Source: a virus (lineage: Duplodnaviria > Caudoviricetes). Taken from it: a stretch of DNA of 50,058 bases. Positions 782-34,403 of the stretch are shown here, in pieces. The notes under the pieces were generated by a model. That model was not told where the DNA came from. It was given only the letters and a program-made list of their open reading frames with translations, and did not search any database. A program made the translations under genes and the position numbers. The stretch covers positions 1 to 50,058 of IMG/VR virus record IMGVR_UViG_3300025313_000023; one strand, written 5' to 3'. Position 1 is the first letter of the stretch. Each line of letters starts with the position of its first letter.

Positions 782-1359
782 AGCAGGCCTTTCCGGCGCG
801 CGATGGCCCTTCGATAGGATGCCAGCCTGTTGGCACGGTGACTTGCAGATTGCTTATGGCCTAAGGCATTCCTATTCCCGGTCATCCTTGTTCTCAGGAG
901 GGTTTTGTGGGCCTCCGAAAGAGGCACGCCCGCTTTGTACCTGTTGGAAAGGATGCGGCAGCGGCGTAATTCATTCGAGCCTTCCTCCGTCATTTGGTGT
1001 CGCCTGCCCGTGTTCGCTTCGCTCATTCTCCGTCGCTCTTCTTCCGTGTGCGGTCGACTTGGTCTTCCTATAGCGGCCGCTCTCATCTTCGCCTTTGCCG
1101 CATCCGAGTGAACGAAAGAAAATCCCGCTGCACCTCCAGGGCTACGATTCGTTAGAGGATGACCAATTGCCCTGAGTCGACCTATCCAATACTTTTCTCG
1201 TTCCAGCCCCAATCGGCGGGATAAATAGACACCCAAGACAATCCACTGCCACGTGGGATGAACCGTGCGATGCTTTTTGCGGCGGGCTGCTGCATCGACC
1301 GTGTAGCCGACATACCACACAGAGCTTCCCTCAACAAGGCCGTACACGAAGTGTCTCAT
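778..1359 (-). CDS. GIY-YIG homing endonuclease with NUMOD3-like repeats
   Basis: FVYGL...WYVGYT...R...E...N motif; HSDAAKAKMR and HTEEERRRMS repeats. Confidence 0.85.
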   Translation of the reverse strand: MRHFVYGLVEGSSVWYVGYTVDAAARRKKHRTVHPTWQWIVLGVYLSRRLGLEREKYWIGRLRAIGHPLTNRSPGGAAGFSFVHSDAAKAKMRAAAIGRPSRPHTEEERRRMSEANTGRRHQMTEEGSNELRRCRILSNRYKAGVPLSEAHKTLLRTRMTGNRNALGHKQSASHRANRLASYRRAIARRKGLL

Positions 1360-6574: not shown

Positions 6575-8071
6575 TCACAGGGCGAGCCTCGCCGCGGTGT
6601 GGCAGGCCATGCTGAGGCACACTGCCAGGTCCACCTTCAGGTCCGGGTCGCGCTGCACGATCCGCATGCGCCGGCCGTCCGTGTCCAGCTTGCGGCCAGC
6701 GTTCTCGAGGTGCTGGCGCAGATCAGCATTGCCATCGTGCATGACGCCGCGCGCCAGGATGCGATCGAACAATGCACGATCGGCCTCAATCCGGTCGGCC
6801 CCTTGGCTGAACTCCATGAACCACGCCAGCCCTTCCTTGGCGAGCTGGGTGCAGTCCGAGTGGAGCTGGTAGGGATCGTAGGGCACGGCGGCCACAGCGT
6901 GAGTTTCGCACAGACGGCGGAGGGTTGGAATAGGACCATTGGCCGCGTGGAAGTCAAGCTTCTTGCCGGGCTCCGCCTGCCATTTCCGCACGATCCGGAC
7001 CATGACATCGTCCGGCCGCTGCGGCTGCATCGAGACACCCACCAGGCCGAAGCAGTCTGGCATCCCTGACGTGCGGCCGATGGCGGCGTCGAGAGCGATG
7101 ACGATCGGCGTCCGGTCGTCCAGCGGCGGCACGACGCCCCGGCACTCGTCCCACAGGCTGATCGTTGGCAGGAAGGCCTCGGTGTCCGCCACGTCTACCT
7201 GGACGCCTTCGAGTAGGAGCTGGATCTCCGACTCGCTCAGGACCTGCGATCGCTCCTCGATGAACCCAGCCGTCAGGTGGGCCAGGTTGTCTCGGGTCGG
7301 GAGGTTTACCATCCGGCGGTCGAGCTTGTAGCGGAGCCTCGGGTCCTGCAGGCGCTGCTCCTTATCCTCGGGGATCGGGCCAGTGTACTTGAACATCCAG
7401 CTGCCGCGGGGAAGCGGCGTCGTCGTGTACCATCGCTGCGGCTTCTCGCCATTCGGCCCGGGCACGCGCACCCGGCCATGAATGACCTTGAGCGCCGCGT
7501 CCGTCCTGTGCCGCCGGATCTCATCGAAGTGCCAGAAGTTCAGGTTCGGTCCCTCCCACGCCTGGACGTCCGATTCCTGCATCCCGCCGATGAAGACGGC
7601 CGCCCCTGTCAGGAAGACGAGCGTAAAGGGTTTCTGGGGCTCCCAGCTCGCAGAGGCCCGATAGCGGTGCCGCTGGATCACCAGGTCCCAGGGGATCCAC
7701 CTCCGGAGCTCGGGCCATAGACTGCGCTTTAGGTGCTCGAAGTCGGGGGAGGTCAGGGCACCATCGCAGCCAGCCTTGCAACGCTCAAGGTCACGGATGA
7801 TGCCTGAAACCGTTTTCCCCCCTCCTTCTCCCCCGAGTGCCCAGAGGTTCGTGACCGCCCCGTCCTGCACCCAGCCGAGCTCGGCCTCGGAGTGCGGCTC
7901 ATACGCGTAGCCCGTCTCGCTGTTGCGGTAGTCGCTGATCGTGGGCCAGGAGATGCCGTGCTCAGCCTTCTCCTTCGTCTCGCGGATGCGCTTCTTGGCC
8001 TCGACCCAAGCCTCCGCCATCATCTGCTCCCAGGCGTGAGGAGACAGGCCGAGGTTGATAGGGGCGGTCAC
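6575..8071 (-). CDS. terL: Terminase large subunit
   Basis: Walker A GGEGGGKT, Walker B WHFDE, TTTP motif, RNase H-like IALD...KVDLAV. Confidence 0.92.
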   Translation of the reverse strand: MTAPINLGLSPHAWEQMMAEAWVEAKKRIRETKEKAEHGISWPTISDYRNSETGYAYEPHSEAELGWVQDGAVTNLWALGGEGGGKTVSGIIRDLERCKAGCDGALTSPDFEHLKRSLWPELRRWIPWDLVIQRHRYRASASWEPQKPFTLVFLTGAAVFIGGMQESDVQAWEGPNLNFWHFDEIRRHRTDAALKVIHGRVRVPGPNGEKPQRWYTTTPLPRGSWMFKYTGPIPEDKEQRLQDPRLRYKLDRRMVNLPTRDNLAHLTAGFIEERSQVLSESEIQLLLEGVQVDVADTEAFLPTISLWDECRGVVPPLDDRTPIVIALDAAIGRTSGMPDCFGLVGVSMQPQRPDDVMVRIVRKWQAEPGKKLDFHAANGPIPTLRRLCETHAVAAVPYDPYQLHSDCTQLAKEGLAWFMEFSQGADRIEADRALFDRILARGVMHDGNADLRQHLENAGRKLDTDGRRMRIVQRDPDLKVDLAVCLSMACHTAARLAL

Positions 8072-14866: not shown

Positions 14867-14895
14867 TTGTACAGGACCGCCAAGCATGCTACTAT
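14867..14895 (+). promoter_or_regulatory. Sigma70-type promoter of the replication operon
   Basis: TTGTAC-17 bp-TACTAT with TGn extension. Confidence 0.65.
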
Positions 14896-14899
14896 GAAC

Positions 14900-15033
14900 G
14901 TGCCAGTTGTCTCCCCACCCCAAGGGCAAGGCGCATTGGCGAGCCGGGAATCAGGGGCGCGAGCCCCGACCTCCCTGCACAGACGACTGGCACCGACTGG
15001 CCATGCGCCTTGGCCTCGAGGTGGGGAGAGACA
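14900..15033 (+). ncRNA. Candidate structured leader RNA
   Basis: Several 10-13 bp complementary segments between the promoter and the RBS. Confidence 0.5.
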
Positions 15034-15047
15034 GGGAGGCGAGCTCG

Positions 15048-15404
15048 ATGTCACCAGCAGCATCCACATCACGAGAGGCCTACCGAGATCATGCAGTCTC
15101 CGGCAGGGCCACCACCCAGCGGGAGCGGATCTTGGCTTTCGTCCGCCGGGCAGGCCAGCCAGTCTCCAGGGCCACGATTGCTCACGCCTTCTCGTTCAGC
15201 TACCGAAACGGGATGTGCTTCGACGCCGGCTTGGACATTCCCCTCGCCTCGGTCTGTGGCCGAGTGAACGCCATGATCGAGGACAAGAGCCTGCGAGTGC
15301 TATCCGAGCCAGCCCGGGACCCATCCACTGGCCATCTCGTCGAGCTGCTCGAGGCGGTCTGGCCGGCGCCCAAGCAGCGGACCTTCGAGGACTTCATGCG
15401 ATAG
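15048..15404 (+). CDS. Winged-helix DNA-binding protein
   Basis: TSREAY...QRERILAFV...SRATIA...SVCGRVNAM; GGGAGG RBS. Confidence 0.65.
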   Translation: MSPAASTSREAYRDHAVSGRATTQRERILAFVRRAGQPVSRATIAHAFSFSYRNGMCFDAGLDIPLASVCGRVNAMIEDKSLRVLSEPARDPSTGHLVELLEAVWPAPKQRTFEDFMR

Positions 15405-15413
15405 GGGCCACTG

Positions 15414-15758
15414 ATGACAACAAGAACCGCCCTTCGTTCCATCACGTCTTGTTTCTACTGCGGAGTTCCTATCTCGCCAACTCCGGTTGTCCAGGAAACA
15501 GAAAGACTCGAACTGGATCATTTCTCGCCGCTTTCATGTGGTGGCCCAGATGTCGTCACGAATCTCGTTCCAGCGTGTCAACGTTGCAACCGGGCCAAGA
15601 AGGCTATGCAGCCACAAGAATGGGCCAACGAATGCTTCGATGCCTCCTACGATGCGATTCGTCGCCTACGATGGCTGATAGGCGATTCCGCCTATTGGCA
15701 ACTCATAAATCAACTCAATTTCGTTCAGGCGAACGCCAGTCTAATCGAGCAATCATGA
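15414..15758 (+). CDS. HNH endonuclease
   Basis: CFYCG...LDHFSPLSCGG...NLVPACQRCNRAK. Confidence 0.88.
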   Translation: MTTRTALRSITSCFYCGVPISPTPVVQETERLELDHFSPLSCGGPDVVTNLVPACQRCNRAKKAMQPQEWANECFDASYDAIRRLRWLIGDSAYWQLINQLNFVQANASLIEQS

Positions 15759-16603
15759 GCATCGAGGCCTGGAAGGCCGTCTTGCACGCGACTGGATTCA
15801 CGCCTACGGAGAAGCTCGTCCTACTGGCTCTCGCCAATCATGCCGACCCCCTCGGAAGACAGATCCGTCCCGGTGTTCCACGTTTGATGGTCTATACCTC
15901 GCTAGCAGAGCGGACCGTTCGCCGCACAATCTCTGATCTTGTCGTTGCCAGCATCTTGCGGCCGGTCGGAGAGAGAAGCCGATATGGATTCGTAGAGTAC
16001 GAGATGGATCTTGGCCAACTGTCAGATGTGGCGTCTCAAGACCTGCAGGACATGCACCTCTCAAAGAGCAACGGGGTGCCAGTCCGTCCCTCCAGGGGTG
16101 CACCTGAGTCCGCCAGGGGTGCACGTGAATCCCGATCTTCCATTAAGGAACCATCAATTAACCATCATCAGGAACCATCATATCCATCCACTCCAGCCGA
16201 GGCCTATTCGGCACGACCAGATGGCAAGCATCAGAAGGCCATTCTGAGAACTGCTCAATTGACATTCCAGGAATGCACGAAAATCACGGAACCATCAATC
16301 GGGACAGATAGCGAACGGAAGGCAGCTGGCCGACGTTGGTGGATTCCACTCCGCCGAATCTGCGAACTCGCCAAATGGGACGGAGAACGAGTCTGTTGGA
16401 TCATCACTGAGGCTGTAAAGCGACTTGATGGAAGGGTGACAATCGCCGCTCCGGGATCGATCCTGGCCACTTGCGAAGGAATTATCGGGGAATCCAACCG
16501 CGGCACGCTGCCCACGGGCACCATGACAAAGGCAGATCGGGACGCCAAAATGCTGTCGGAGCAGGAGCGGTTCCGGCGCCTGAAGAACGGGGAGCGAAAG
16601 TGA
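15755..16603 (+). CDS. Replication initiator (HTH_36, lambda O-like)
   Basis: TEKLVLLALANHAD...ERTVRRTISDL; internal iterons; followed by a DnaC-like gene. Confidence 0.8.
   Translation: MSIEAWKAVLHATGFTPTEKLVLLALANHADPLGRQIRPGVPRLMVYTSLAERTVRRTISDLVVASILRPVGERSRYGFVEYEMDLGQLSDVASQDLQDMHLSKSNGVPVRPSRGAPESARGARESRSSIKEPSINHHQEPSYPSTPAEAYSARPDGKHQKAILRTAQLTFQECTKITEPSIGTDSERKAAGRRWWIPLRRICELAKWDGERVCWIITEAVKRLDGRVTIAAPGSILATCEGIIGESNRGTLPTGTMTKADRDAKMLSEQERFRRLKNGERK
16071..16190. repeat. Putative replication origin: iterons plus A-rich repeats
   Basis: CCAGGGGTGCACSTGARTCC at 16092 and 16113, degenerate copy near 16071; AACCATCA at 16149, 16160, 16173. Confidence 0.65.
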
Positions 16604-17484
16604 CAACTTGGCCCTGGAACATCGCCGCCATCGCCGACGGGAATCTGATCGGCGCAGAGCTTAGAGCGATTGAAGTGGGAGCTATGGTCGGCTGCCAGCC
16701 GGAGATGGTGCCCGGCGCGTGCACGAACTGCGGCGGACGCGAATTCATGGCGGCCTGGCGGATCGAGATAAATGGCAATCGTCACTATTTCGGTCCAGGA
16801 TGGGGTGACTGGCGACCGGCCAGCTTGCAGACACAGCCATGCCCCGTATGCCAAGGCTCGGTCCGGATGGAGGCGCTCCAAGACATTTCTGGCTTGGGTG
16901 GCCTCGTCCTTGACGGCAAAGCCGCTGGCAGTCTGCGCCTTGATGCTTTCCGCCCAGAGACCGGCCAAGTTGACGCGCTGGAAGCATGCCGACGGCTACT
17001 CGTTGAGCTCCCCAGTCCGCGCACCTGGGCTCTGTTCTTCGGTGGGTACGGAACGGGAAAGACGCATCTGCTATGTTGCTTGGTGAACGCCTGCCTGCTG
17101 ATGGACGTCGCGGCCCGATACACCACCGCAGAGGGCATCCTGCGTAGCCTTCGGGCCACGTTCGATGGGCGGCACGGCACAGAGGCAATTCGCCAGGAAC
17201 TCGAGAACATCCGCGTGCTCGTCGTCGACGAGATCGATCGCGTGAAGCTCAGCGATTGGGCTGGCGAGACCTTATTCGGCATCCTGAATGCACGATACAC
17301 GCACGGCCTCGCGACTTGGTGCGCGACCAACAAGGCACCCAATGAGCTGGAGGCCTCCGAGGTCTATGGAGCCTTGGTAAGCCGTCTCTCCTCTGGCGAG
17401 ATGGTCGCTATCACAGGGGACGACATGCGGCCAATGGCCCAGACACAGCTTCCCGACCGTCGGGATGGAACGGCGGCGGGGTGA
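16600..17484 (+). CDS. DnaC/IstB-like AAA+ helicase loader
   Basis: CxxC pairs, Walker A GGYGTGKT, Walker B VLVVDE, RY...ATN...SRL...GDDMR. Confidence 0.88.
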   Translation: MTTWPWNIAAIADGNLIGAELRAIEVGAMVGCQPEMVPGACTNCGGREFMAAWRIEINGNRHYFGPGWGDWRPASLQTQPCPVCQGSVRMEALQDISGLGGLVLDGKAAGSLRLDAFRPETGQVDALEACRRLLVELPSPRTWALFFGGYGTGKTHLLCCLVNACLLMDVAARYTTAEGILRSLRATFDGRHGTEAIRQELENIRVLVVDEIDRVKLSDWAGETLFGILNARYTHGLATWCATNKAPNELEASEVYGALVSRLSSGEMVAITGDDMRPMAQTQLPDRRDGTAAG

Positions 17485-17936: not shown

Positions 17937-18186
17937 GACACCGGCTGAGGAGTGGCGAATGGGCCGTCAGGAATTCTACGGTGAGGATTCGATGTATGCC
18001 ATCGGTGATAGATTGGCAACCGCCCTCTCGGCCTCGCAGGAGCGGGTGCGGGAGCTGGAGGGAAGAATCGACGCGGCAGTCGCATACATCTATGGGGAAG
18101 ACGATCCAGATATGCCGGGTATGCCCTGGGCCATTCAGCATATCGTCCGCATTCTTGACGAGGCAGAGCGAGGAGGCCAGGGATGA
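17914..18186 (+). CDS. Hypothetical cassette gene with coiled-coil SQERVRELEG motif
   Basis: AAGGAG RBS; ends in connector copy 1. Confidence 0.65.
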   Translation: MMPDMKPKTPAEEWRMGRQEFYGEDSMYAIGDRLATALSASQERVRELEGRIDAAVAYIYGEDDPDMPGMPWAIQHIVRILDEAERGGQG

Positions 18187-18506
18187 GTGACACCAAGACG
18201 GTTCTACTGAGCGAGATGATGCACGCAGCGGAGAAGTCGGATGAGTGGCACTTCCCGATGAGCTGGACCGATAAAGTCGCGGAGCTAGAGATCACCCTCG
18301 CGGCCTCGCAGGAGCGGGTGCGGGAGCTGGTGGAAGGGAGAGCCCTGGCGGAGGCTTTGGTTTTGTCCCACGAGGGACACATCGCTACCCTAGAGAAGCA
18401 GATGCGTGAGCTGGAGGGGAAGTTGATTTTGATGACCGCCGAGCGGGATGCTGTTTGGTCGGAGCTGCACGGCCTACTCGGGCAGTTCGACAATACTGAC
18501 GCGTAG
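18183..18506 (+). CDS. Coiled-coil hypothetical cassette gene
   Basis: Starts in a connector; ASQERVREL and MRELEGKL motifs. Confidence 0.65.
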   Translation: MSDTKTVLLSEMMHAAEKSDEWHFPMSWTDKVAELEITLAASQERVRELVEGRALAEALVLSHEGHIATLEKQMRELEGKLILMTAERDAVWSELHGLLGQFDNTDA

Positions 18507-18522
18507 AGCGAGGAGACCAGGG

Positions 18523-18690
18523 ATGAAACGTAAGCATGTGACACACTACTCCACGCTGGGCCTTGTCATCTGCACCAATCGCGAGCCCGGCCCGCGCCAA
18601 CATGCCGTTTGGGGAAACATGAGAGTGACCTGCAAGAAATGCCGTGACATCCTAGGATTGCCCCAGCGGAGCAAGGAGGCCGGGGGATGA
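18523..18690 (+). CDS. Small Zn-binding hypothetical cassette gene
   Basis: H...C...VTCKKC; starts and ends in connectors. Confidence 0.65.
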   Translation: MKRKHVTHYSTLGLVICTNREPGPRQHAVWGNMRVTCKKCRDILGLPQRSKEAGG

Positions 18691-18872
18691 AACCTGACTG
18701 GCCAGAAATCGTACGCAATCTATTGACCGCCCTTCCTGACAGTCGTGGTCTGGGCGGGACCGACAACCGATGGTGGAGAAGTCTCACTCTTGAGAATCGG
18801 CGCTATGTAAAACGAATGCGGCGCGAAGCCGAGGCCGCTATCCGCAAGGCAGAGCGAGGAGGCCAGAGATGA
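18687..18872 (+). CDS. Basic hypothetical cassette gene
   Basis: Starts and ends in connectors. Confidence 0.6.
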   Translation: MKPDWPEIVRNLLTALPDSRGLGGTDNRWWRSLTLENRRYVKRMRREAEAAIRKAERGGQR

Positions 18873-19285
18873 GTGACTTGAACGAACGTAGAGCCGGGTT
18901 CGTGTACGATGCCGCTCGGCTTGCGGCGGCTGCTGCAGGCGCTCCTATCGTCCCAGTTGCATGGGCCGAGCGGGAGGATGCCTTTCGCAGTCAGTTTCTC
19001 CAGGTGATTGAGCGACAGTGTGGAGAGCAGCGTTCGAGATCGACGGAGGAATTGCACGGCTCCTGGATGCAGGCGTACTTCGCAATGGGATGGACTTATG
19101 GCCTTATCTACGACCGCGAGTCATTGACCCATCCCGACCTTGTGCCCTATGCCGAGCTTGGCCAACTCGAACAAGATAAGGATGCCGTCTTTATCGCCTT
19201 GTGTGAGATTGCGCGCCAATGGATACGAGGGAGCGAGGAGGCCAGGGATGAGCATCATGCCGGGCGTGATGATAGATCTCCATGA
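18869..19285 (+). CDS. RyR-domain protein
   Basis: HGSWM...GWTYG...HPDLVPYAEL...QDKD. Confidence 0.8.
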   Translation: MSDLNERRAGFVYDAARLAAAAAGAPIVPVAWAEREDAFRSQFLQVIERQCGEQRSRSTEELHGSWMQAYFAMGWTYGLIYDRESLTHPDLVPYAELGQLEQDKDAVFIALCEIARQWIRGSEEARDEHHAGRDDRSP

Positions 19286-19463
19286 GTATGAGCACGCGCT
19301 AATCAGGGCGGTTCTGAATGGCCAGGTATTTCCGCCGGTCAGCGCGCTACCAGCATCGCTCGGATACGATCCGTCTGAGTGGCTGGCCATCATCGCAAAC
19401 AGGGCGAAGGCCCAATCCATCTATGACCAATTCGCCCTCAAGAACCGAAAGGAGGGCGGATAG
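19248..19463 (+). CDS. Hypothetical cassette gene
   Basis: Starts in connector 5. Confidence 0.55.
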   Translation: MSIMPGVMIDLHEYEHALIRAVLNGQVFPPVSALPASLGYDPSEWLAIIANRAKAQSIYDQFALKNRKEGG

Positions 19464-19524
19464 GCAAAAGTCATCAGCACGCGCATCAATCCGCCGAACC
19501 ATTGAGAAGCAAGGGAGAGACAGA

Positions 19525-20232
19525 ATGCGAAAGATGATTATCGTACTCAGCCTGACGTTGGCGCTCCTCAGCTTGTTTGGCCTGACGGCGGCCGTCATGG
19601 CCGATCCGCCTCCGAGCTGCCCAGATGGCCAGCATTATGACCAGCAGTCGCAGCAATGCGTGGACAACGGTCCGCCGGAGGAGCCCACGGCCGAGCCGAC
19701 CACAGAACCGACGGCCGAGCAACCGACAGCCACGGCAGTAGTCGATCCGACCGCCACTGACCAGGGGCCGGAGAGCCGTGCATACTGCCACGCCACTAGT
19801 GACCCAAGCGGGACGCACTACCAGTATCTTTTCAACCCGGCCTGGGTGCAGCACTTCGAGAACAACGGTACCCCGAAGGATGGCCACGAATTGGACTTCT
19901 TCACGTTCGAGGGCAATACCGACTGTGTGCGGGACGAGCCCACGGACGATCCGACCGCCACTGAGATCGTTGAGGCGACTGCCACGGATGTCATCGAACC
20001 TACGGCGACCGAAGAGGGCCAGCCAACGGCCACTGAGGAAGGCCGACCAACACCAACGGATGATTGCATCCCTGGAGGCGGCACAGAGTTCGCCCCGTGC
20101 GCAACCGTGACGCCCAAGCCTCCGTCTCATCCTGGGACGGGCCCGGAGGAGTCGTCCGCCGTCCTGGGATGGCTGACGACGATGGGAATCGGACTGGCCT
20201 CCGCCGGCATCGCTGGGATGCGCAGGCGCTAG
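19525..20232 (+). CDS. Secreted Pro/Thr/Glu-rich surface protein with LPXTG-like sorting signal (HPGTG)
   Basis: Sec signal MRKMIIVLSLTLALL...AVMA; EPTA repeats; HPGTG followed by a hydrophobic segment and terminal RRR. Confidence 0.75.
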   Translation: MRKMIIVLSLTLALLSLFGLTAAVMADPPPSCPDGQHYDQQSQQCVDNGPPEEPTAEPTTEPTAEQPTATAVVDPTATDQGPESRAYCHATSDPSGTHYQYLFNPAWVQHFENNGTPKDGHELDFFTFEGNTDCVRDEPTDDPTATEIVEATATDVIEPTATEEGQPTATEEGRPTPTDDCIPGGGTEFAPCATVTPKPPSHPGTGPEESSAVLGWLTTMGIGLASAGIAGMRRR

Positions 20233-20234
20233 CC

Positions 20235-20501
20235 ATGTTCAAGTTCGATCAGCACGAGAAGGTGAAGGACATCATCTCCGGCTTCACTGGGTTGGTGGTA
20301 GGACGCACCGAATGGGACAACGGCTGCATCAGATACACCGTCGCATCCCAGAAGCTCGACAAGGACGGGAAGGTGATCGCGAGCGAGGCATTCGATGAGT
20401 CTAATCTCGTGAGCCTTCACAAGCCCAACCTCGTCGATCCTGACGAGGGCAGGGCGCGCCCGGGTGGGCCTCCAGTGTACGGAGATCCGAGGCCTCGGTG
20501 A
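20235..20501 (+). CDS. Conserved phage hypothetical protein (SH3-like)
   Basis: KVKDIISGFTGLVVGRTEWDNGC...FDE...PGGP. Confidence 0.7.
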   Translation: MFKFDQHEKVKDIISGFTGLVVGRTEWDNGCIRYTVASQKLDKDGKVIASEAFDESNLVSLHKPNLVDPDEGRARPGGPPVYGDPRPR

Positions 20502-21334
20502 AACCGATCTGGCCGCCGTACTTCCTGGCGGTAGGCCTGCTGATGATCCTCAGCGGGGCGGGCCTCTATCTGCAGCGATACATGCCGCAGAAGCCGAGGG
20601 CCCGACACGGCATGGCGGCGGTAGTGCCCAAGGCTACCGTCGCCGTGCCAGTGTCCATCCTGGCCATCGAGGCGGCCGGGATGCCTACGCCTCTCCCGAC
20701 GGTCTGGATTGAGCCAACGCCCAACCAGCACGCCGCCTGGACCTACGACGGAGTGGACCTTGCCTCCAGCCAGGTGACGTTCGTGACGGTTGGAGGCATC
20801 GCCCTCAATCCAGTCACGCCCTACCCTTGGACACCGGACTCCCTCGGCTCCGGCATCTTCGACTGGGGCCATCGGACCGGGCTCGCCTGGGCTGACGATC
20901 ATGGGCGGGTCGGATTCTGGATCCACTCGGGCGAGGACGAGACCGCCTATCCCCTCCAACTCGTCCTTGAGCGGACGCCACAGGGATACCTCGTCTCCGC
21001 TGACGAAGGCGAGGCCCGGTTGGCGGCGCTCATCGGAGCACCCGTTACCATCGATCAGGCGGGGTGGGCGGAGAACTCCATCGTGGTGGCCGCCGTGCGC
21101 GTCCCACCGCTTGAGGTTCCGAGCCTCGATGGCCACGTCGAGGACCTAGCCGAGTACCTGGCTGAGCACTATCCCGGTCAGGGATGGGAGCAGATCGTCG
21201 CTCGGGACGATGCGCTGATGCTCTTCTTCTGCGGCCTCCGTCTCGCTGGCGAGGAGAAGAATCCGAGAGAGAACTTCTATCGCCAGGCAAGGTTCATCAT
21301 CGGACTTCTACCAGAGCGAGGAGGCCAGGGATGA
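20498..21334 (+). CDS. Putative divergent sortase
   Basis: N-terminal TM; His (GRVGFWIHSG), Cys (LMLFFCG) and Arg (ARFIIGL) in sortase order; substrate-like gene upstream. Confidence 0.6.
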   Translation: MKPIWPPYFLAVGLLMILSGAGLYLQRYMPQKPRARHGMAAVVPKATVAVPVSILAIEAAGMPTPLPTVWIEPTPNQHAAWTYDGVDLASSQVTFVTVGGIALNPVTPYPWTPDSLGSGIFDWGHRTGLAWADDHGRVGFWIHSGEDETAYPLQLVLERTPQGYLVSADEGEARLAALIGAPVTIDQAGWAENSIVVAAVRVPPLEVPSLDGHVEDLAEYLAEHYPGQGWEQIVARDDALMLFFCGLRLAGEEKNPRENFYRQARFIIGLLPERGGQG

Positions 21335-21642
21335 GTGACATGACAGAGAAGGAGCGCGCCGACCGCCTGGAGGCTATGGTAGATCGCCTGTTGGGGACGA
21401 TTGTCGAGTTGAAGTCCGAACTCTCCGCCTCGCAGGCTGAGCTTGCTGTAGCCAACATGCGACTGCAAGCGTCTGAGGAGCGGGTGCAGGATCCGGCGGG
21501 CAAATTAGCGGTATGGCAAGACATTCATACGCCAGGGCAGACAGCCGAACCATACACGGTCACATGGACGAGTAGCGATGGGACGAGGGGCGAGTTCATC
21601 GTGGGTGGCCGGTCGCAGAGCGAGGAGGCCAGGGATGAGTGA
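21331..21642 (+). CDS. Coiled-coil hypothetical cassette gene
   Basis: Starts and ends in connectors; LSASQ and ASEERV motifs. Confidence 0.65.
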   Translation: MSDMTEKERADRLEAMVDRLLGTIVELKSELSASQAELAVANMRLQASEERVQDPAGKLAVWQDIHTPGQTAEPYTVTWTSSDGTRGEFIVGGRSQSEEARDE

Positions 21643-22831: not shown

Positions 22832-23019
22832 TGGCATCCAAGAGAGCGGTCAGGCGAAAAGCGTGTCGAGGCAAGGTCGCATATACCGATCTCGATGGCG
22901 CCAAGCACGCGGCCAGCCGGACGAGTAAGAGACTCGACACCCCGATGTGGGCGTATGCCTGTAAACATTGTGGAAAATGGCACATCGGGCATCCCGGCCG
23001 GCGGAGGGGCGAGACATGA
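22831..23019 (+). CDS. Small basic Zn-finger protein
   Basis: C..K..Y...AYACKHCGKWHIG. Confidence 0.7.
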   Translation: MASKRAVRRKACRGKVAYTDLDGAKHAASRTSKRLDTPMWAYACKHCGKWHIGHPGRRRGET

Positions 23020-23447
23020 CCGATCCAATCCTCTACTTCTCCGTCAAGGGAACGCCGGTCCCCAAGCCCAGGATGAGTCAGCGTGATCGCTGGCAACATC
23101 GTCCAGCGGTCGCGCGCTATCGTGAGTATGTGGATGAGATCCGGGCTGGTGGGGTCGATGCCAAGCGCGCCGCGCACCTAGGGGACTTCTTTCACCTCGC
23201 TGGCCCGCTACGCGTGTCAATGACCTTCACGTCGACGGAGACCTACCTGACTGTCGCTCGGGCGGAACTCCCCTATCGTCGTCCGCCCGGCTTGCGGTTC
23301 GATCTGGATAACGGTGTCAAGGCAGTGCTTGAGGCACTGCAGCCGCAACATGGCATCCTGTCCGCGTCCATCCTGAAGGACGACAACCAGGTGGTGGCCC
23401 TGGAGGCCGCCTTCCTGGATCCCGATCACATGCAGGCAGTGCTATAA
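23016..23447 (+). CDS. rusA: RusA-like Holliday junction resolvase
   Basis: GTPVPKPR...DLDNGVKAVLEAL...DDNQV. Confidence 0.85.
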   Translation: MTDPILYFSVKGTPVPKPRMSQRDRWQHRPAVARYREYVDEIRAGGVDAKRAAHLGDFFHLAGPLRVSMTFTSTETYLTVARAELPYRRPPGLRFDLDNGVKAVLEALQPQHGILSASILKDDNQVVALEAAFLDPDHMQAVL

Positions 23448-24409: not shown

Positions 24410-25651
24410 TCACGAATCAATCAAGCGGAAGTCAATCCTCGGATTCTCAAGGAGCCTGAGTAGGGCGTCCTCATCGGCCTGCCGAAAGTGTAGGAGTACG
24501 ATGTCTCCCTCAGAAACGGGTGCGCCCGCATTTAGGTCGGATGTATCGATGTCCCAGAGATACGGCGTCAGACCATCCTCGCGCGCGAACGTCTCGAATG
24601 CGCGGGTGTCAAGGCCGTAAGGCGGTCGGGCAGCGAAGATGAGACCATCATCAAGCGGGCCCGCCAACTCGATCATCGTTCCGTTCCAGCTTGAAAAATC
24701 ACGACGCCAATCCCCGGCGATCCATAGGCCAATCTCGCCCATGTCTGGGTGATGCATCGTGTGGTAGGCAATCTGATTGCCCTGGCTAATCGCCATCTGA
24801 ATTCGATCTGGCCCCAGAGATTTTGCCGCATCGCCGATGAGGAAGAAGGTCGCGACCGCATTGTGATCTCGGAGCATGGCGAGCATCCGGTCAAAGCTAA
24901 CCACACTCCATCCGTCGTCGATCGTCAGATAGACGGACACGGTTCGTGACGAGATCTTGAAGTCTTGAATGACCCCATCGATTCGCCACCGAGAATTTCC
25001 TAGATAGAGAGGCGCTCGCTCGTAGTGATCCGTGAAATGGACTTGGGAAAGCCACCAGTCTGGATAGTCAACCACCTCGACGGGGCCCTCCTCGCGGAAG
25101 CGAGCTGGGTTCATCTTTGAGATTGTCACGCCATCGATAGGATCATCCATGCTCCAGCGTTCCTTAGTCTCCCAGCTGACCTCGACGACCTCCCGGCGGT
25201 ATTTGACAATGGCATAGATGTCATCGCCCTGCGCGCAATCGACGGTGAGGAATGGCCCTTCCCAGGCCTGTCGGGGACGGAGGATCCAGACTGGCTTTCC
25301 GAGATCCGCGCAGGACATCATGGCCACGCCTCCAACGTAGCCGGGCGTCGCGGGCATCATTCCTGGGGCATACCATACGGCCCGGCCGATACTAACGGGC
25401 GGCGCCGGCGTCATCCAGCTATCGACGGATACCATGCCCGGCACCCAGCCGCCCCACCACCAGTACCCATCGAACTTGTTCTCGTTGTTGCAGATGACGG
25501 CCGCCTGTTCGTAGGGGCATTCATCGCCAGCCGAACCGGGCGTGGTGACGGCCAACATCCAGATGGCGATGCTGATCCCGACCGCAGCTGACATAGCAGA
25601 GCCGAGGGGTCGTTTCGTTTTGTCCTCCCTATGACGGGCTGGCATCCTCAA
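24410..25651 (-). CDS. Secreted fusion: DPBB/RlpA-like domain plus CE4 (NodB) polysaccharide deacetylase; true start probably downstream of 25651
   Basis: Signal-like segment; GRAVWY...VDCA; LTIDDG, ATFF, HTMHH, RPPYG, WDIDTSD, IVLLH. Confidence 0.8.
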   Translation of the reverse strand: MRMPARHREDKTKRPLGSAMSAAVGISIAIWMLAVTTPGSAGDECPYEQAAVICNNENKFDGYWWWGGWVPGMVSVDSWMTPAPPVSIGRAVWYAPGMMPATPGYVGGVAMMSCADLGKPVWILRPRQAWEGPFLTVDCAQGDDIYAIVKYRREVVEVSWETKERWSMDDPIDGVTISKMNPARFREEGPVEVVDYPDWWLSQVHFTDHYERAPLYLGNSRWRIDGVIQDFKISSRTVSVYLTIDDGWSVVSFDRMLAMLRDHNAVATFFLIGDAAKSLGPDRIQMAISQGNQIAYHTMHHPDMGEIGLWIAGDWRRDFSSWNGTMIELAGPLDDGLIFAARPPYGLDTRAFETFAREDGLTPYLWDIDTSDLNAGAPVSEGDIVLLHFRQADEDALLRLLENPRIDFRLIDS

Positions 25652-25731: not shown

Positions 25732-26109
25732 TCAAGCGGCCCGCTTGCGGCGGTCCGGACCTACCCGGATGGCCTCTAGGGTACGCCCGTGCCGCTTCTC
25801 GGCCAGGGCCTCGTGGCGAGCTATGGCCTCCGTCAGGCCGGCCATGGCATCGGTGAGGCTAGCGAGGCTGGCCTCCCCGTGCTCCATGCCCTCCCTGCGC
25901 TGGGAGCGGTCGAGGGCGAGGGCCTCCTTCATGGCCGCGTCCCGGTTATCCATCGATTTGGCGAAGGCTTCGGTCAAGTCCTTGATGGTCCTATGGAAAA
26001 GGATGTCCCTGGCCTCACGCTCCTTGCTGTCCAGGCGGCGCCACACGATCGCGAAGATGATGAACGCGCCGACTGCGCCGGCCTGAAAGAGGATCTGCTC
26101 GATCGTCAT
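25732..26109 (-). CDS. N-terminal TM plus coiled-coil protein (holin/lysis-associated)
   Basis: ATGA overlap with the endolysin; AGAVGAFIIFAIVW. Confidence 0.6.
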   Translation of the reverse strand: MTIEQILFQAGAVGAFIIFAIVWRRLDSKEREARDILFHRTIKDLTEAFAKSMDNRDAAMKEALALDRSQRREGMEHGEASLASLTDAMAGLTEAIARHEALAEKRHGRTLEAIRVGPDRRKRAA

Positions 26110-27140
26110 GGGATGTCGTGGACCTTGTAGGCGGGCGCCCACATCCAGCCGACTTCGACGCCCATGCCCACGCGCCACCAGTCGCCGCCAATGCCGCCGC
26201 CCGTCTCGAGCCGTTCGAAGACCGTGCCTGCCGGAAGCAGCCGGATCACCGGGTAGGAAACGCCCGGCCCGGTCCGCAGGTTGGCCTGCAGCACGAGCGA
26301 CCAGTAGTCATGGCCAGAAGGCGGGATGGGAAGATCGCCCCAGGTGAAGTTGGCGATCGCCGACTTCTGCTCATCGGTCGCCAGGTCCAGCGCCCACACG
26401 CTCGCCCCCGCCAGCCCCAACTCCACGGAGCGGCGGAAGAACGCCGTCAACTGCGCTGGCGTGGCCCGCCAGGGGCCGGCCGCTAGGTAGGTGGGGGCGA
26501 CCCCGATGTAGGGCAGCAGCCGTACCTGGGCGTATTGCTTGACGCTCATCTCAAGCTGGATCCCCCCGCCGTTGATCCGGTTGTCGCCCAGGAAATAGAC
26601 CTGCGGGGACCACCCGTCCATGGCGGGGGCGAAGATCCGCACCGGGAAGTCTGGCTGGTGGGTCAGCGGCCAGCGATAGGAGCACAGCGTCAAGAACAGA
26701 CCCGGCCCGATCCGGTTAGCCTCTCGAGCGTACTCGTCCGCCCATCCGGGCTTGTTACGGTATTGCGCTTCGGCGTCGACCTGGTAGTGCTCCATGCCGT
26801 GCTTCCGCGCGACCTGGATAGCCTTGACAGCTTCCTTGGCCGGCGTGCAGGAAATCGGCACGGGGATGCTGGGGACGTAATCCCAAATGATCCGGCGCCC
26901 CCACAACCATCCCCAGCCATCGACTGCGATGCCGGCTTCCTTCAGTGCGCCGACCGTCGCCGGAAGCAGTTCGTAATTGGTCCGGCTGCCCCCCTCCCAC
27001 TTCTCGCGGTTGCCGTCAACGATCTTGATGGACACCCGGCTGAGGCCGAGCCGCTTGGCTTCGGCGACCTGCCAGCGCGGATCCCCGCCCTGCCAGTTCC
27101 GCAGCTTCCACACCATCGCCTGCTTGCCAGTTGGGATCAT
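26106..27140 (-). CDS. Endolysin: glycoside-hydrolase-like barrel plus SH3b
   Basis: VDAE, PQVY motifs; ANLRTGPGVSYPVI...WWRV...GWM; position after tail genes. Confidence 0.75.
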   Translation of the reverse strand: MIPTGKQAMVWKLRNWQGGDPRWQVAEAKRLGLSRVSIKIVDGNREKWEGGSRTNYELLPATVGALKEAGIAVDGWGWLWGRRIIWDYVPSIPVPISCTPAKEAVKAIQVARKHGMEHYQVDAEAQYRNKPGWADEYAREANRIGPGLFLTLCSYRWPLTHQPDFPVRIFAPAMDGWSPQVYFLGDNRINGGGIQLEMSVKQYAQVRLLPYIGVAPTYLAAGPWRATPAQLTAFFRRSVELGLAGASVWALDLATDEQKSAIANFTWGDLPIPPSGHDYWSLVLQANLRTGPGVSYPVIRLLPAGTVFERLETGGGIGGDWWRVGMGVEVGWMWAPAYKVHDIP

Positions 27141-30808: not shown

Positions 30809-32853
30809 GCCGCACCCCTCAAAAACAAGAAGCGATAGTGCATGAAGACCTCGACGGCCATTGCTTCGCCCAAACTAGCGACCAAAGGCTCAATGGCCCA
30901 TCCTTCCGTGGAGAAGTGCTCCATCAGGAAGTAGAGCCGAGTGCGCTTGCCCAGGTTGCGGAACTCGATCGGCTTATTGAAGCGCGGCCACTCCTCGGAG
31001 GGCGAGATCGTGCTATCGGCATGGTACTGGAACTTCACGGTCCGATTGGCGATGCAGCCGTTGTCGAGTTCCAGGTAGCTCCCGCCACGCAGGGCCGAGC
31101 TACCTCGACTGGAGTCCGTGACCGGATCGTCGACCCCGACGCTACCCTCCTGCACCGGAAAGAGGTACAGCCAAGCCCAGTCAAGGACGGCTGCCGATCC
31201 GCCGGCGCGCTCGGCCAGAAGATGAATGGCGACATTCAATGGCTCGAGCGGATCGTTGGCGTAGACCCGGGAGCGCGGAATCTGGATCAGCCCAAGGTCG
31301 GCGACCTCCAAGCCAAGATCGGCCGACAGGCTGCTGAACTCAAGGATGTCCGTGTGGGGATCGAAGTCCAGTTCCTCTCCGACGAAGACCCTTGCCGTCA
31401 TTGTGACATCGCCAGCCACGCCCCCGACCTGCTGGAAGGCGACGAGGACTCGATACTCGCCGCGGTAGGCCTGGACGACGTCGGTGCCAGTGAACATGAC
31501 CCTCGTTGTCAGGGTGCCGTCCGTGGCGAACGTGGTGCGGGCCTTGGCGCCGCCGGGATAGCCGATGTCCGAGACAGCCGAAGTGTCCGTGCCGTAGGTG
31601 ACGGCCCACGCGCCCGGGTTGTCCTGGTTCCCGGCATTCAGCATCGGCTCGAAGTCGTCGAGATCGACGACACCATCCTCTGAGTCTGACTTGGCCCCGA
31701 TGAGGATCCTCGAGATGTTCGGCTTGTCGGGAGTCTCATCACCCCCGCTCGGCGCCCACATACGGATGCAAGTCAGAGGATAGGTGTCTCCCTCGAGCGA
31801 AGCCGCAGGAACCTCGACGTAGGGCGTCCGCTGGGCATAGATCGTCGCTCCGTTCTTCTGGGGCAGGGTGGTCGTCGAAGTCACGGAGACAATGATGATC
31901 CGGATCCAATAGGCGTTCACGCCGTTGATGACCGTCTTGGCCCAGCCCGTCAGACGGTCGGGGAATAGATTGATGGCGAAGTCTCCGCCGTCCTGACTGG
32001 CGAAGAAGTCATCGTCGTCGATTGCCTCGCCGCCCTCAATGCGGTTGATCGTGTATTCGGTTCCGAGCGTCAGGTCCGTCCAGGCGGCACCGCTCCAATA
32101 CTGGAGCTTGGTGTCCCAGTTCGTCACTGCCCCGATCTTGAGGCCGTAGCAGACGTGCTTGAAGGCGATGTCCGTCGATCCGGCGTAGTGCAGATCACTC
32201 GCCGCCGGCGCGGCGGGCCACAGAGCGGTGCCATCTGCGGCGCTGATCAGGTTGGCGCTGAAGGTCCCTGCGCTATCGTCGAAGGCGAAGACGTGGGTGA
32301 CGTCGCCATCGTCACGGAAGTTGGCGACCCAGACGATCTGAGGTGAGGCGGGGCCGTTGCTCGGACCGAGCGTGATCGCCGGCCGGCCGAGGACGGTCGT
32401 GTCGGTGCTCCCGAGCTGTCCAGGTGGCTTGGTCCGCCAGGGATGCTCACGGACGAGCGTCATTTGAACTGGCGTCAACACATGGCCAGCCCGGGCGGGC
32501 TGATCAAAGACGCTCGGGAAGTCGAGCTGGGATACCTCGCGGACGAACGCATATCGTTCATTGCTCTCGCAGTCGCCTTGCTGGTGGATGTAGACGTGCC
32601 GTGTCCACATCCCAGTCTGCGAGAACTCGTTTGCGCGATTGATGAGTCTCTTGAGACGCTGGATTTTCACTGCCAGCCCATCGGGCGATTGCGCCGCCAG
32701 CGAGAAGCGCCACTGCTCCGTGATGGCAGGCTCGTCCCCAAGCGGGAGCGCGGTGCTCTTCGAGCCGTCTGGCAGGATGCAAAGCGATCGAGGATCGAAC
32801 AGGTCGATTTCCTCGTTGCCGTCGCTCAGGACGAAGACGGGGATCTGGCTCAT
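30805..32853 (-). CDS. Distal-tail-like protein with inserted domains
   Basis: Immediately after tape measure; LVREHPWR. Confidence 0.6.
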   Translation of the reverse strand: MSQIPVFVLSDGNEEIDLFDPRSLCILPDGSKSTALPLGDEPAITEQWRFSLAAQSPDGLAVKIQRLKRLINRANEFSQTGMWTRHVYIHQQGDCESNERYAFVREVSQLDFPSVFDQPARAGHVLTPVQMTLVREHPWRTKPPGQLGSTDTTVLGRPAITLGPSNGPASPQIVWVANFRDDGDVTHVFAFDDSAGTFSANLISAADGTALWPAAPAASDLHYAGSTDIAFKHVCYGLKIGAVTNWDTKLQYWSGAAWTDLTLGTEYTINRIEGGEAIDDDDFFASQDGGDFAINLFPDRLTGWAKTVINGVNAYWIRIIIVSVTSTTTLPQKNGATIYAQRTPYVEVPAASLEGDTYPLTCIRMWAPSGGDETPDKPNISRILIGAKSDSEDGVVDLDDFEPMLNAGNQDNPGAWAVTYGTDTSAVSDIGYPGGAKARTTFATDGTLTTRVMFTGTDVVQAYRGEYRVLVAFQQVGGVAGDVTMTARVFVGEELDFDPHTDILEFSSLSADLGLEVADLGLIQIPRSRVYANDPLEPLNVAIHLLAERAGGSAAVLDWAWLYLFPVQEGSVGVDDPVTDSSRGSSALRGGSYLELDNGCIANRTVKFQYHADSTISPSEEWPRFNKPIEFRNLGKRTRLYFLMEHFSTEGWAIEPLVASLGEAMAVEVFMHYRFLFLRGAA

Positions 32854-34403
32854 TGTCTCTGCACTTCTTGTCTCATGGATTCGAGCATGGCGATCCCGTC
32901 AACGTCCCTCGTGATCGTCGGCTGGAAGATGATCGTCTTCGTCTGATAGCTCTGGTTGGCGTTGTTCGTGATGCCAGGACTACCGATCTGCGGCACCATC
33001 TGCTGTGCTGGCGTCTGAATGATCACGCGCTCTCCAGAGGAGGCCCCGAACGTAAATCGGTCGTTGGGATAACCCGGCGGCACCCTCACGTCCAGGCCGT
33101 GCTGGCCCGTCAGCGCGACGAGCGGCGCCCCGATTGTCATCCCCTCCAACTTGCGGGCAAGTTCGATCGCCTTCTTGAGCCTGCCGATGATGTCATCGAT
33201 GTCGCCCCCATACTGCTGGACGAGCTTTCGAGCCGTGCCCCACAGTGGCTTGTCGCCAGCCGCCACTGGTACGGCGGCCGCGGCGATGACCGTATTGTCG
33301 AACTCCTGCCTGAGTTTGCCAGCCTCTTCGGTGACCGGCGTCAGAGCGTCCCGGGCAGCAGTGAAGCTGGCAGGCGCGCCCTCAAGCGGAACACGGCCGA
33401 CGATCTCTCCCGGCTGGGGGCCCTGGATGCTCCCTGCCTGAAGGAGCTTTAGACCCTCTATGCTGGCCACCTGTGATTTGTAGTAATTGTCGCTGGCAGC
33501 CTGAAGGTCGCCAAGGCTTCTCTTGGCTTCGTCAAGCCCCTCAGAGATGTCTCCTCCAGCTGTCTTTACGGTGCCTCCCAATGATCTCATCTGGTCTTCC
33601 CAGGATCCTGTGGGCGCTTCCAGATCGAGGAGGCTAATTCTCAATGCTTCTAATCTGTCCGCTGCGTCTGTCAGGCCCTTCCCCTCTGCGAGATCAAGGG
33701 CCGCCTCGGCTAGGAAGTTAAGGAACATGGCCCCTTGACTGAGTGCCGGGACGGCCTCCAAGCCGACCGTATTCTTCAGGACCGTCCATGAGTCGTTGAG
33801 AGTGTCGAGCTGCAGCCGGAGCGTCTCCGTCTTTTGAATCTCCTCCTCGGTCACGACAAGACCATCACGGACAGCTGCGGCGTTGGCCCTGATCGCGTCT
33901 CCGCCCTCCTGAAGTAGCGGATCGAGGGCGGCCCAGTTGCGTCCGAATATCTTGGCCGCCTGAGCCGCTCTCTCGGTCGGATCCTGTATGGCATTCAGGC
34001 GATCAGCAAGGTCCGCGATGCTATCAACGGATGGGGCAAATCCATTCTTCGTCGCCAGCGCAAGCGCGGTCTCGACGGATCCCATGCTGATGCCGAAGTC
34101 GTCGGCGATCTGGACGATGCGACTGAAGTCTTCAGCCGTCGTTCCAGTGGCCCGGGAGGCATCAAGAATGGACTTGTTGTAGGCGATGAGGGAGCCGACC
34201 GTCTCATCGAAAATCCCTTTGGCTGTCCTGAATGCCTGGCCGACGATTTGCATGGCCGCATTGAAGCCGGTGAAGGCCAGCGCGACCTTCGTTCCAGTGT
34301 CGCCGAAGCCGCTGAGTGCCTTCTTGCTCTTGGCTATGTCGCTCTGGAACTTGGCTGAATCCTTCGCGACCAACTTAACGCCGGTCTCTTTCAGCTCTGC
34401 CAT
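32850..34403 (-). CDS. Tape measure protein (517 aa)
   Basis: Ala/Gly-rich helical; ERAAQAAKIFGR...LDPLL; follows the chaperone. Confidence 0.85.
   Translation of the reverse strand: MAELKETGVKLVAKDSAKFQSDIAKSKKALSGFGDTGTKVALAFTGFNAAMQIVGQAFRTAKGIFDETVGSLIAYNKSILDASRATGTTAEDFSRIVQIADDFGISMGSVETALALATKNGFAPSVDSIADLADRLNAIQDPTERAAQAAKIFGRNWAALDPLLQEGGDAIRANAAAVRDGLVVTEEEIQKTETLRLQLDTLNDSWTVLKNTVGLEAVPALSQGAMFLNFLAEAALDLAEGKGLTDAADRLEALRISLLDLEAPTGSWEDQMRSLGGTVKTAGGDISEGLDEAKRSLGDLQAASDNYYKSQVASIEGLKLLQAGSIQGPQPGEIVGRVPLEGAPASFTAARDALTPVTEEAGKLRQEFDNTVIAAAAVPVAAGDKPLWGTARKLVQQYGGDIDDIIGRLKKAIELARKLEGMTIGAPLVALTGQHGLDVRVPPGYPNDRFTFGASSGERVIIQTPAQQMVPQIGSPGITNNANQSYQTKTIIFQPTITRDVDGIAMLESMRQEVQRQ

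Follow-up and report, generated by a model that had tools for sequence, protein, structure and literature searches.

Can a phage of 50 kb bring its own machinery for fixing a protein to the surface of the cell it infects? The question is raised by three tightly packed genes, termed here A, B and C, on the plus strand at positions 19525 to 21334 of the IMG/VR virus record IMGVR_UViG_3300025313_000023, which is complete at 50,058 bp and was analysed over its full length (hereafter, the window). An initial annotation of this DNA proposed that gene C encodes a sortase and gene A its dedicated cell-wall substrate. In our analysis, C is predicted to possess a sortase fold and stands beside a gene for a secreted protein that ends in a matching anchoring signal. 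The phage is therefore probably equipped to attach a protein to the surface of its host by itself. We consider it about 70% probable that A and C constitute a self-contained cassette for sortase-type surface anchoring, an enzyme-substrate pair within the early region of a 50-kb phage. This reading is supported here by the fold of C, the conservation and order of its catalytic residues, the tripartite signal of A, and a pairing of genes in which the type of signal tracks the enzyme clade. The features of the block are as follows.

19525-20232 (+): gene A, secreted candidate substrate, 235 residues (translation, homologue alignment)
19525-19602 (+): Sec-type signal peptide of A, residues 1-26 (...AVMA/D), as read from the sequence
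19777-19926 (+): Cys/His passenger domain of A, residues 85-134 (RAYCHATSD...H...GHELD...C; alignment)
20128-20142 (+): HPGTG of A, proposed xPxTG-type sorting motif, residues 202-206
20158-20229 (+): hydrophobic segment of A, residues 212-232 (21 residues), with RRR at residues 233-235
20235-20501 (+): gene B, 88 residues (PHROG matches)
20498-21334 (+): gene C, predicted membrane-anchored cysteine enzyme of sortase fold, 278 residues (AlphaFold2 model, fold matches, family alignments)
20516-20581 (+): N-terminal membrane helix of C, predicted signal anchor, residues 7-28 (AlphaFold2 helix)
20924-20926 (+): His143 codon of C (WIHSG), just after strand 138-142 (strand 4); invariant, n=69
21098-21100 (+): Arg201 codon of C (AAVRVPP), at the end of strand 190-202; invariant, n=69
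21230-21232 (+): Cys245 codon of C (FFCG), proposed nucleophile, near the end of strand 240-246 (strand 7); invariant, n=69
21290-21292 (+): Arg265 codon of C (QARFII), in strand 264-272 (strand 8); at least 90%, n=69

Genes A and B are separated by 2 nt, the stop of B overlaps the start of C, and 265 nt lie between A and C. The sequence features on which the proposal was built were all found at these coordinates, both in A (Sec signal, stalks rich in proline, threonine and glutamate (P/T/E), Cys/His domain, and HPGTG with a hydrophobic segment and RRR) and in C (N-terminal transmembrane segment, WIHSG, LMLFFCG and ARFII). The initial annotation placed C two genes on from A, which holds in that C is the next gene but one; a single gene, B, lies between them.

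Predicted fold and catalytic residues of gene C

Gene C starts with a GTG codon that overlaps the stop codon of gene B, and its own stop lies inside a connector repeat (described below). The protein comprises the helix at residues 7-28, a linker modelled with low confidence and a domain at residues 76-278. A hydrophobic N-terminus is also present in the full-length relatives of C in the alignment. We infer that the catalytic domain lies outside the cell.

The AlphaFold2 (AF2) model of C, generated from a 69-sequence family alignment, had a mean predicted local distance difference test (pLDDT) score of 90.9. It contained eight strands, ordered as in sortases, and a helical insert separated strand 6 from strand 7. 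A Foldseek search of the PDB gave 46 matches at E<=1e-3 (best E 1.0e-5), and all among the matches listed were sortases. When Foldseek's top 998 chains were aligned with VIA-align, 129 scored Z>=5 and the best 50 of these 129 were all sortases, led by the Clostridium perfringens class B sortase SrtB (5b23_A; Z 8.9, root-mean-square deviation (rmsd) 3.8 Å, 150 residues aligned). A VIA-align comparison made independently of Foldseek against all 48,161 representative PDB chains placed sortases of classes A to F in the top 18 positions (Z 8.9-6.7), with the 19th chain at Z 3.6. Resemblance to classes B, C and E was about equal, the scores being tied (Z 8.9-8.1). As modelled, C is a sortase beta-barrel.

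Two further predictions carried no weight in this assessment. The ESM Atlas model of C itself was poor (pLDDT 0.31), and its nearest structural match, a class B sortase cluster (TM-score 0.32), was not counted as evidence. When C residues 66-278 and A residues 186-235 were modelled as a complex, the score was 0.02, which counts neither for nor against an interaction. Two other enzyme types were considered and set aside. L,D-transpeptidases (YkuD) carry a motif of the HxxxxxxxxxxxxxSxGCxR type with His and Cys within about 20 residues of each other; this identity was rejected for C, in which the two residues lie 102 apart and no profile match was obtained. The succession of H-S-G and C-G after hydrophobic strands prompted a clan CD, caspase-like reading, which was dropped: C is modelled as a beta-barrel whose structural matches are confined to sortases, and no caspase-like or hemoglobinase chain occurred among the structural matches listed.

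Five residues, H143, G145, R201, C245 and G246, were invariant in the 69 aligned relatives of C, and S144, E158, E252 and R265 were each present in at least 90% of them. In the C model, H143, C245 and R265 hold the same places relative to the strands as the His, Cys and Arg of sortases do. The family was also compared, using hhalign, with a reference alignment (A4) built from Chloroflexota genomes and comprising 30 canonical sortase domains; five of 35 canonical-sortase loci (L014, L062, L063, L069 and L072), in which a motif filter found no clean domain, were left out. In the global alignment (P=1e-4), the invariant His, Cys and Arg of the canonical enzymes fell opposite H143, C245 and R265, and a control with the template reversed gave P=0.87. 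The local alignment (E=0.0021, probability 13%) paired C245 and R265 with the sortase Cys (TLITC) and Arg. The sequence signal is weak but agrees with the structural result. The fold and the His/Cys/Arg set put forward in the initial annotation were both supported, by the model and its structural matches in the first case and by conservation and alignment in the second.

The family was delineated by a HMMER search of 1.84 billion cluster representatives (50% identity), in which 70 relatives of C were found at E<=1e-3. The family alignment (A3) holds 69 sequences and leaves out eight of the 70 representatives as fragments (P0040, P0077, P0081, P0091, P0093, P0099, P0100 and P0104). Within GTDB, the family was located in 11 loci, all in metagenome-assembled genomes (MAGs) of Chloroflexota: three in Brevefilum, five in Anaerolineaceae, two in 'Chloroflexia' and one in Chloroflexota. 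A scan of 301 Chloroflexota genomes matched the catalytic part of C in six (G001, G081, G153, G189, G207 and G271). Another 65 of the 71 genomes at E<=1e-3 were not counted, as they match only the N-terminal helix and P/T linker; such matches reach model positions of about 140 (in one case 174). The family is rare, and is otherwise found in Anaerolineaceae and other Chloroflexota.

Relatives were sought elsewhere with little return. Neither tblastn of C against 50,697 GenBank phage records nor blastn of positions 19200-21400 against GenBank phages gave a match. Scans of IMG/VR with the A1 alignment, with C (P0002) and with A (P0001) found no relative, the window's own record possibly lying outside the scan. 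No viral structure in BFVD matched C at E<=1e-3. A metagenome scan with the C sequence alone returned nothing; with alignment A6 it returned three loci (L077, L078 and L079). A sequence-profile search of the PDB with C gave four chance-level matches (E>1), and a literature search found no paper pairing 'sortase-like' with Anaerolineae; among papers on sortases and LPXTG in Chloroflexi, none dealt with this family to judge by its title. A Gram_pos_anchor match on the membrane helix of C (E 0.035) fell below the cut-off and was set aside.

Pfam TAT_signal was matched at the N-terminus of seven of the 69 family members (best E 8.4e-4). Judging from these matches, some enzymes of the family may be exported in folded form via Tat.

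The candidate substrate and the partner genes of related enzymes

Gene A is preceded by a ribosome-binding site, AGGGAGAG, 6 nt before its start. Its signal peptide, MRKMIIVLSLTLALLSLFGLTAAVMA, consists by eye of MRK, a hydrophobic core and AVMA, and the AF2 model of A places a helix at residues 2-22, overlapping this region. A short Cys-bounded hairpin follows the signal peptide. The Cys/His domain is flanked by linkers composed to 65% (residues 50-83) and 53% (residues 138-197) of P/T/E. Within the domain, C88, H89, H110, G120, H121, E122, D124 and C134 are each conserved in at least 90% of relatives. The stretch spanning the HPGTG motif reads PKPPSHPGTGPEES; seven spacer-like residues stand between the motif and the hydrophobic segment, and the AF2 model has a helix at residues 210-226. 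The AF2 model of A had a mean pLDDT of 52.6, the Cys/His domain reaching only 64-76. With respect to the features of LPXTG-type proteins, A possesses an N-terminal signal peptide (read by eye) and a C-terminal hydrophobic segment with a positively charged tail. It is the sole open reading frame (ORF) of the window to combine P.TG, a hydrophobic segment and a basic tail.

A relative with 67% identity to A retains PPSHPGTGP and the whole anchor, its linkers having diverged. Relatives of the Cys/His domain in other organisms (P0026-P0035) carry anchors of the LAATG, MASTG or LGATG type. Passenger and signal thus behave as independent modules, of which the signal accompanies the enzyme. The Cys/His domain matched nothing in Pfam or NCBIfam, PHROGs likewise yielded no useful match for A, and a CBM_14 match on A (E 0.012) was below the cut-off and set aside. 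As a module (YCHA...H..NNGTPK.GHELDFF...DC) the domain is rare, being found in six proteins when used alone as query. Its pattern of Cys, His, Glu and Asp might conceivably hint at metal binding, although this is a guess from residue types.

Evidence for a pairing of A with C comes from the loci of related enzymes. A gene directly upstream on the same strand, with a product ending in xPxTG or PTVG followed by a hydrophobic segment and a basic tail, was found for 16 of 18 distinct enzyme genes (window included), in agreement with the co-occurrence expected of an enzyme and its substrate. As a control, all six-frame ORFs of at least 90 residues from the window and 16 loci were screened for this signal. 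It was borne by 16 of 470, and every one of the 16 is the gene directly upstream of a family-C enzyme. Since the signal-bearing ORFs are exactly the genes upstream of enzymes, the phage offers no candidate substrate other than A. The gap between substrate and enzyme genes ranges from -47 to +187 nt in cellular loci; the locus with a split enzyme gene has 469 nt.

The motifs of the partners are LPETGG, LPGTGG, LPDTGG, APTTGA, SPTTGA, APVTGP, APATGS, APATGP, SPVTGA, PPTVGP, LPTVGP and HPPTGP, the first three being canonical, to be compared with HPGTGP in the window. Mapped onto the enzyme tree, the motif classes require four changes, the minimum possible, and none of 200 shuffles was as low. Relatives share motif labels by descent, so this result shows clustering and not independent co-evolution. 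The tree leaves out three duplicates (L017=L010, L018=L007 and L019=L011) and the split gene of L009. The passenger domains vary: an Ice_binding-like domain (PF11999) was found in three of ten partners scanned, and the others matched no known family.

In the clade with LPxTGG signals, the substrates are Ice_binding-like PF11999 proteins on a PT-repeat stalk (L004 3683-4663, L006 3730-4803 and L007 25-1137, all on the plus strand). The Anaerolineaceae contig L007 carries two convergent enzymes of the family, at 1325-2212 (+) and 2397-3260 (-). Each has its own upstream substrate, and the two signals differ (LPGTGG and PPTVGP).

The nearest metagenomic relatives of the enzyme, in L077, L078 and L079, share 49-55% identity with C over the best aligned segment (L077 51%, L078 49%). 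L079 holds only the C-terminal end of an enzyme at a contig edge and was not counted. The partner in L077 and L078 overlaps the enzyme gene by 8 nt and has a passenger unlike that of A, and it ends in TPKPPRHPPTGP followed by a hydrophobic segment and a basic tail. This signal (PRHPPTGP) is almost identical to TPKPPSHPGTGP of the window. L078 is a contig of 59.8 kb on which DNA methyltransferases, a ParB-like protein and a terminase large subunit are encoded within about 7 kb downstream of the pair. It is probably another phage or prophage. Methyltransferase genes are also present in the window. Relatives of the enzyme (83%) and of A (67%) were both found on contigs of 9,565 and 5,192 bp, which suggests that the two genes are also neighbours there.

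Upstream of the pair in L077 (2456-4458) and L078 (1411-3767), two larger membrane or secreted proteins are encoded on the plus strand. By eye, they resemble TadE/TadG-type pilus-assembly proteins.

Proposed mechanism, alternative explanations and known systems

By analogy with sortases, the following sequence of events may be proposed. Protein A would be exported through Sec, after which the hydrophobic segment and RRR at its C-terminus would keep it in the membrane. C would be anchored in the same membrane by the helix at its N-terminus and expose its sortase-fold domain on the outside. Cys245 would attack HPGTG, helped by His143 and by Arg265 and/or Arg201, and the Thr-Gly bond would be cut. 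An amine acceptor, for which a peptidoglycan precursor is the likeliest candidate, would then receive A, leaving the Cys/His domain displayed at the cell surface on a P/T/E-rich stalk. Chemistry, scissile bond, acceptor, topology and role in infection (exclusion, receptor masking or adhesion) are all drawn from that analogy. Canonical sortases (PF04203) were found in 80 of 121 sampled Chloroflexota genomes (one of them, G043, unpublished), so wall sorting is usual in this phylum. It is thus plausible for the host group, the host type of the phage being Chloroflexota-type bacteria, and the phage itself carries polysaccharide deacetylase and SH3_3 genes.

Several observations weigh against the interpretation of A and C as a sortase-type pair. 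C has no relevant match in Pfam (E<=1), PHROGs (E<=1) or NCBIfam (E<=10); PF04203 is matched nowhere in the window and by none of the 69 family members at E<=0.1. The signature TLxTC is absent, the family reading (Y/F)FCG(R)xLxGE instead, with ETCG at the Cys site only in L021 and L022, the loci most distant from the rest. Profile-profile comparison gave hhalign probabilities of just 13-30%, a weak signal. L021 and L022 have also lost R265; R265 is not invariant while R201 is, and the catalytic Arg may be either one or both. Foldseek TM-scores are modest at 0.36-0.55 (normalised to target length), with an rmsd of 6-8 Å, and according to VIA-align guidance a Z near 8 can mean merely a common arrangement; the gap down to Z 3.6 argues against the latter. 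On the substrate side, A does not possess the LPXTG pentapeptide, HPGTG keeping only the P-x-T-G core and starting with His and not Leu. Nor was A matched by the Pfam anchor model PF00746 (E<=1) or by any NCBIfam model (E<=10). In the phage, moreover, A and C are split by the unrelated gene B, and three of five genomes with the C family also encode a canonical sortase, to which processing of these substrates could in principle fall.

Gene B matches phrog_16275 (E 6.3e-10) and phrog_8618, both PHROGs of unknown function, and is translationally coupled to C via an overlapping GTGA. In the other loci read, both cellular ones and L077 and L078, the substrate and enzyme genes have no gene between them. 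B is probably not part of the sortase system.

The same chemistry could lead to another outcome, in which C cuts xPxTG and the product is then released by hydrolysis (shedding or maturation) or polymerised into a fibre, with no link to peptidoglycan. The fold and residues of C would suit any sortase-type reaction and C is about equally like classes B, C and E, the pilin sortases of class C being enzymes that join substrate molecules into a fibre. Against this stand the lack of a second pilin-like gene beside the pair in the loci read and the fact that A and its analogues have long P/T-rich stalks, as is typical of wall-spanning surface proteins. We regard release or polymerisation as unlikely.

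A is, with still smaller probability, anchored by a canonical sortase of the host, with C serving some other extracytoplasmic role and the adjacency of the two genes being mere linkage. The prevalence of PF04203 sortases, in three of five family-bearing genomes and 80 of 121 sampled Chloroflexota genomes, would allow this, as would the LAATG-like signals that relatives of the Cys/His domain bear elsewhere; these are signals of ordinary sortase substrates, which we take to be of the class E type. It is countered by the signal gene found upstream of 16 of 18 enzymes whatever the passenger, by the tracking of enzyme clade by signal type, and by two of the five family-bearing genomes showing no canonical sortase (although MAGs may be incomplete). 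Additionally, a phage would have little reason to carry both genes.

Least probable of all is that the pair plays no part in infection, being host DNA that the phage picked up and carries inertly or that a chimeric assembly placed on its contig. In favour of this, the family is otherwise mostly chromosomal in MAGs. Against it, the block recurs without differences in further sequencing runs, is tightly packed with phage genes and ends with the C stop inside a phage connector, all catalytic and signal residues are intact, and a second phage-like contig carries a diverged pair.

How, then, does the proposed sortase-type pair compare with characterised enzymes? The best structural match of C is to class B sortases (for example C. 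perfringens SrtB, 5b23, and Staphylococcus aureus SrtB, 1ng5; top Z 8.9). SrtB enzymes possess a wide His-Cys spacing, a helical insert between strands 6 and 7 and a neighbouring substrate gene. C shares the N-terminal anchor, the helical insert between strands 6 and 7, the wide spacing (102 residues) and the adjoining substrate gene. It differs from class B in its low identity (about 12%), the missing PF04203 match, FFCG in place of TLxTC, a Cys-to-Arg spacing of 20 residues and an additional invariant Arg201. The sorting signals differ too, xPxTG in the C family as opposed to the NP(Q/K)TN type of class B.

Class E sortases of Actinomycetota (Streptomyces coelicolor SrtE1, 5cuw; Thermobifida fusca SrtE) gave a statistically tied match (Z 8.7-8.2). 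As in class E, which acts on LAXTG, a motif start other than Leu-Pro is tolerated, many partners of the C family carrying A-P-x-T-G. Class E enzymes are housekeeping sortases with many scattered substrates and are found by PF04203, whereas the C family stands one-to-one with an adjacent gene and is missed by that profile. On the model, C would work like a sortase with a dedicated substrate, closest in architecture to class B and tied with class E in structural score. C matches no sortase profile and lacks TLxTC; it is therefore placed on a divergent branch of the sortase superfamily (MEROPS C60), within no described class.

We lean, by a small measure, towards a wider proposal: that the family represents a previously unrecognised sortase class, Anaerolineaceae-type 'HSG/FCG' enzymes that stand one-to-one with an upstream xPxTG protein, and that the pair has been captured by Chloroflexota phages, which swap the passenger and so use it as a portable two-gene cassette for decorating the wall of the infected cell.

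The logic of the proposed cassette has parallels in other systems. Prophage LPXTG proteins such as SasX of S. aureus are wall-anchored surface proteins supplied by a phage, as proposed for A. SasX-type proteins rely on the host sortase; here the phage also carries the enzyme. A motif followed by a transmembrane segment and a basic tail, co-inherited with a processing enzyme, is likewise the principle of the exosortase/PEP-CTERM, archaeosortase/PGF-CTERM and rhombosortase/GlyGly-CTERM systems, which sometimes consist of one enzyme and one substrate. Exosortase-type enzymes are polytopic with unrelated folds, whereas C is predicted to be a sortase barrel on a single anchor.

The nearest precedent in phages comes from a bioRxiv preprint (24 Oct 2026, 10.64898/2026.10.24.761521), which reports that huge gut phages carry 24 canonical SrtB genes, PXTG substrates being encoded upstream. 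These modules resemble the present one in that the sortase is phage-encoded and a candidate substrate lies immediately upstream. They comprise canonical, PF04203-retained SrtB enzymes related to those of Bacillota, in phages of more than 200 kb from animal guts. C differs from the modules so described in belonging to an unannotated family with Chloroflexota relatives and in residing in a phage of 50 kb, the DNA of which comes from metagenomes of sediment, groundwater and soil. The concept of a phage sortase is thus no longer unprecedented; the C family is. The divergent active-site and sorting motifs (FFCG and HPGTG) noted in the initial annotation stand, and its remark that no characterised equivalent was known in a phage early region is overtaken by this preprint.

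If the proposed activity is correct, a structurally clear but sequence-invisible branch would be added to the sortase superfamily, and a function would be assigned to about 70 clusters of hypothetical proteins (50% identity) and their partners. Phage sortase-substrate modules would extend beyond the huge gut phages of Bacillota to an ordinary 50-kb phage of an environmental, little-studied phylum, which would point to surface remodelling as a wider phage strategy. The HPxTG, APxTG, LPxTGG and PTVG variants that track enzyme clades would amount to a natural experiment in sortase specificity, and the family might yield ligation enzymes orthogonal to SrtA.

Phage setting and flanking repeats

The A-B-C block is situated in the rightward replication and recombination block (early region) of the phage. 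Landmark genes of the window and the repeats near the block are given below.

6575-8071 (-): terminase large subunit
14867-16603: replication initiator
16471-17484: DnaC-like loader
18168-18187, 18508-18527, 18854-18873, 19233-19252, 21316-21335 and 21620-21639 (+): connector copies
19233-19252 (+): connector upstream of the A-B-C block (junction of stop, ribosome-binding site and ATG)
19248-19463: small gene between the upstream connector and gene A
21316-21335 (+): connector at the end of gene C, containing the C stop codon and the ATG of the next gene
22968-23447: RusA
32850-34403 (-): tape-measure protein

As to a possible temperate lifestyle, no integrase was found among 40 ORF translations of the window that were scanned, a subset of all its ORFs. 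DNA of the window was recovered in 20 DNA sequencing runs of sediment, groundwater or soil metagenomes from 17 studies, of which nine runs may be sources of the record itself. In four further runs, the A-B-C block was covered by contigs with zero differences from the window.

The 20-nt connector (GCGAGGAGGCCAGGGATGAG) occurs in six copies at no more than three mismatches, against 0.03 expected. Each copy comprises the stop of one gene together with the ribosome-binding site and ATG of the next. The initial annotation had placed the block between two such copies, and these exist; they begin at 19233 and 21316 and not at 19231 and 21314. The connector copies are also where loose ends, joints and peaks of depth accumulate in the contigs of four other runs. 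A joint from 18191 to 18848, omitting 656 nt, was found in four of four runs. Another, from 18644 to 21615, omits the A-B-C block and is weak, occurring in run X10 only with a side of 25 nt and a depth of 2.9. The connectors look like module-boundary sequences common to related phages and sites of cassette exchange.

Other genes of the window were noted in passing. A homing-endonuclease-like ORF at 778-1359 (-) matches phrog_314 (E 7.1e-11) and adjoins an ORF of 870 residues without matches. A polysaccharide deacetylase domain protein at 24410-25651 (-; PF01522, E 7.7e-15) adjoins an SH3_3-domain protein at 26106-27140 (-; E 8.5e-7), and the two are probably wall-directed, with roles in lysis or wall modification. 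A large glycosyltransferase of 811 residues is encoded at 38718-41153 (-), with two glycosyltransferase-type matches that include GtrB-like O-antigen conversion PHROGs; it is a candidate for a second surface-modifying gene of the phage.

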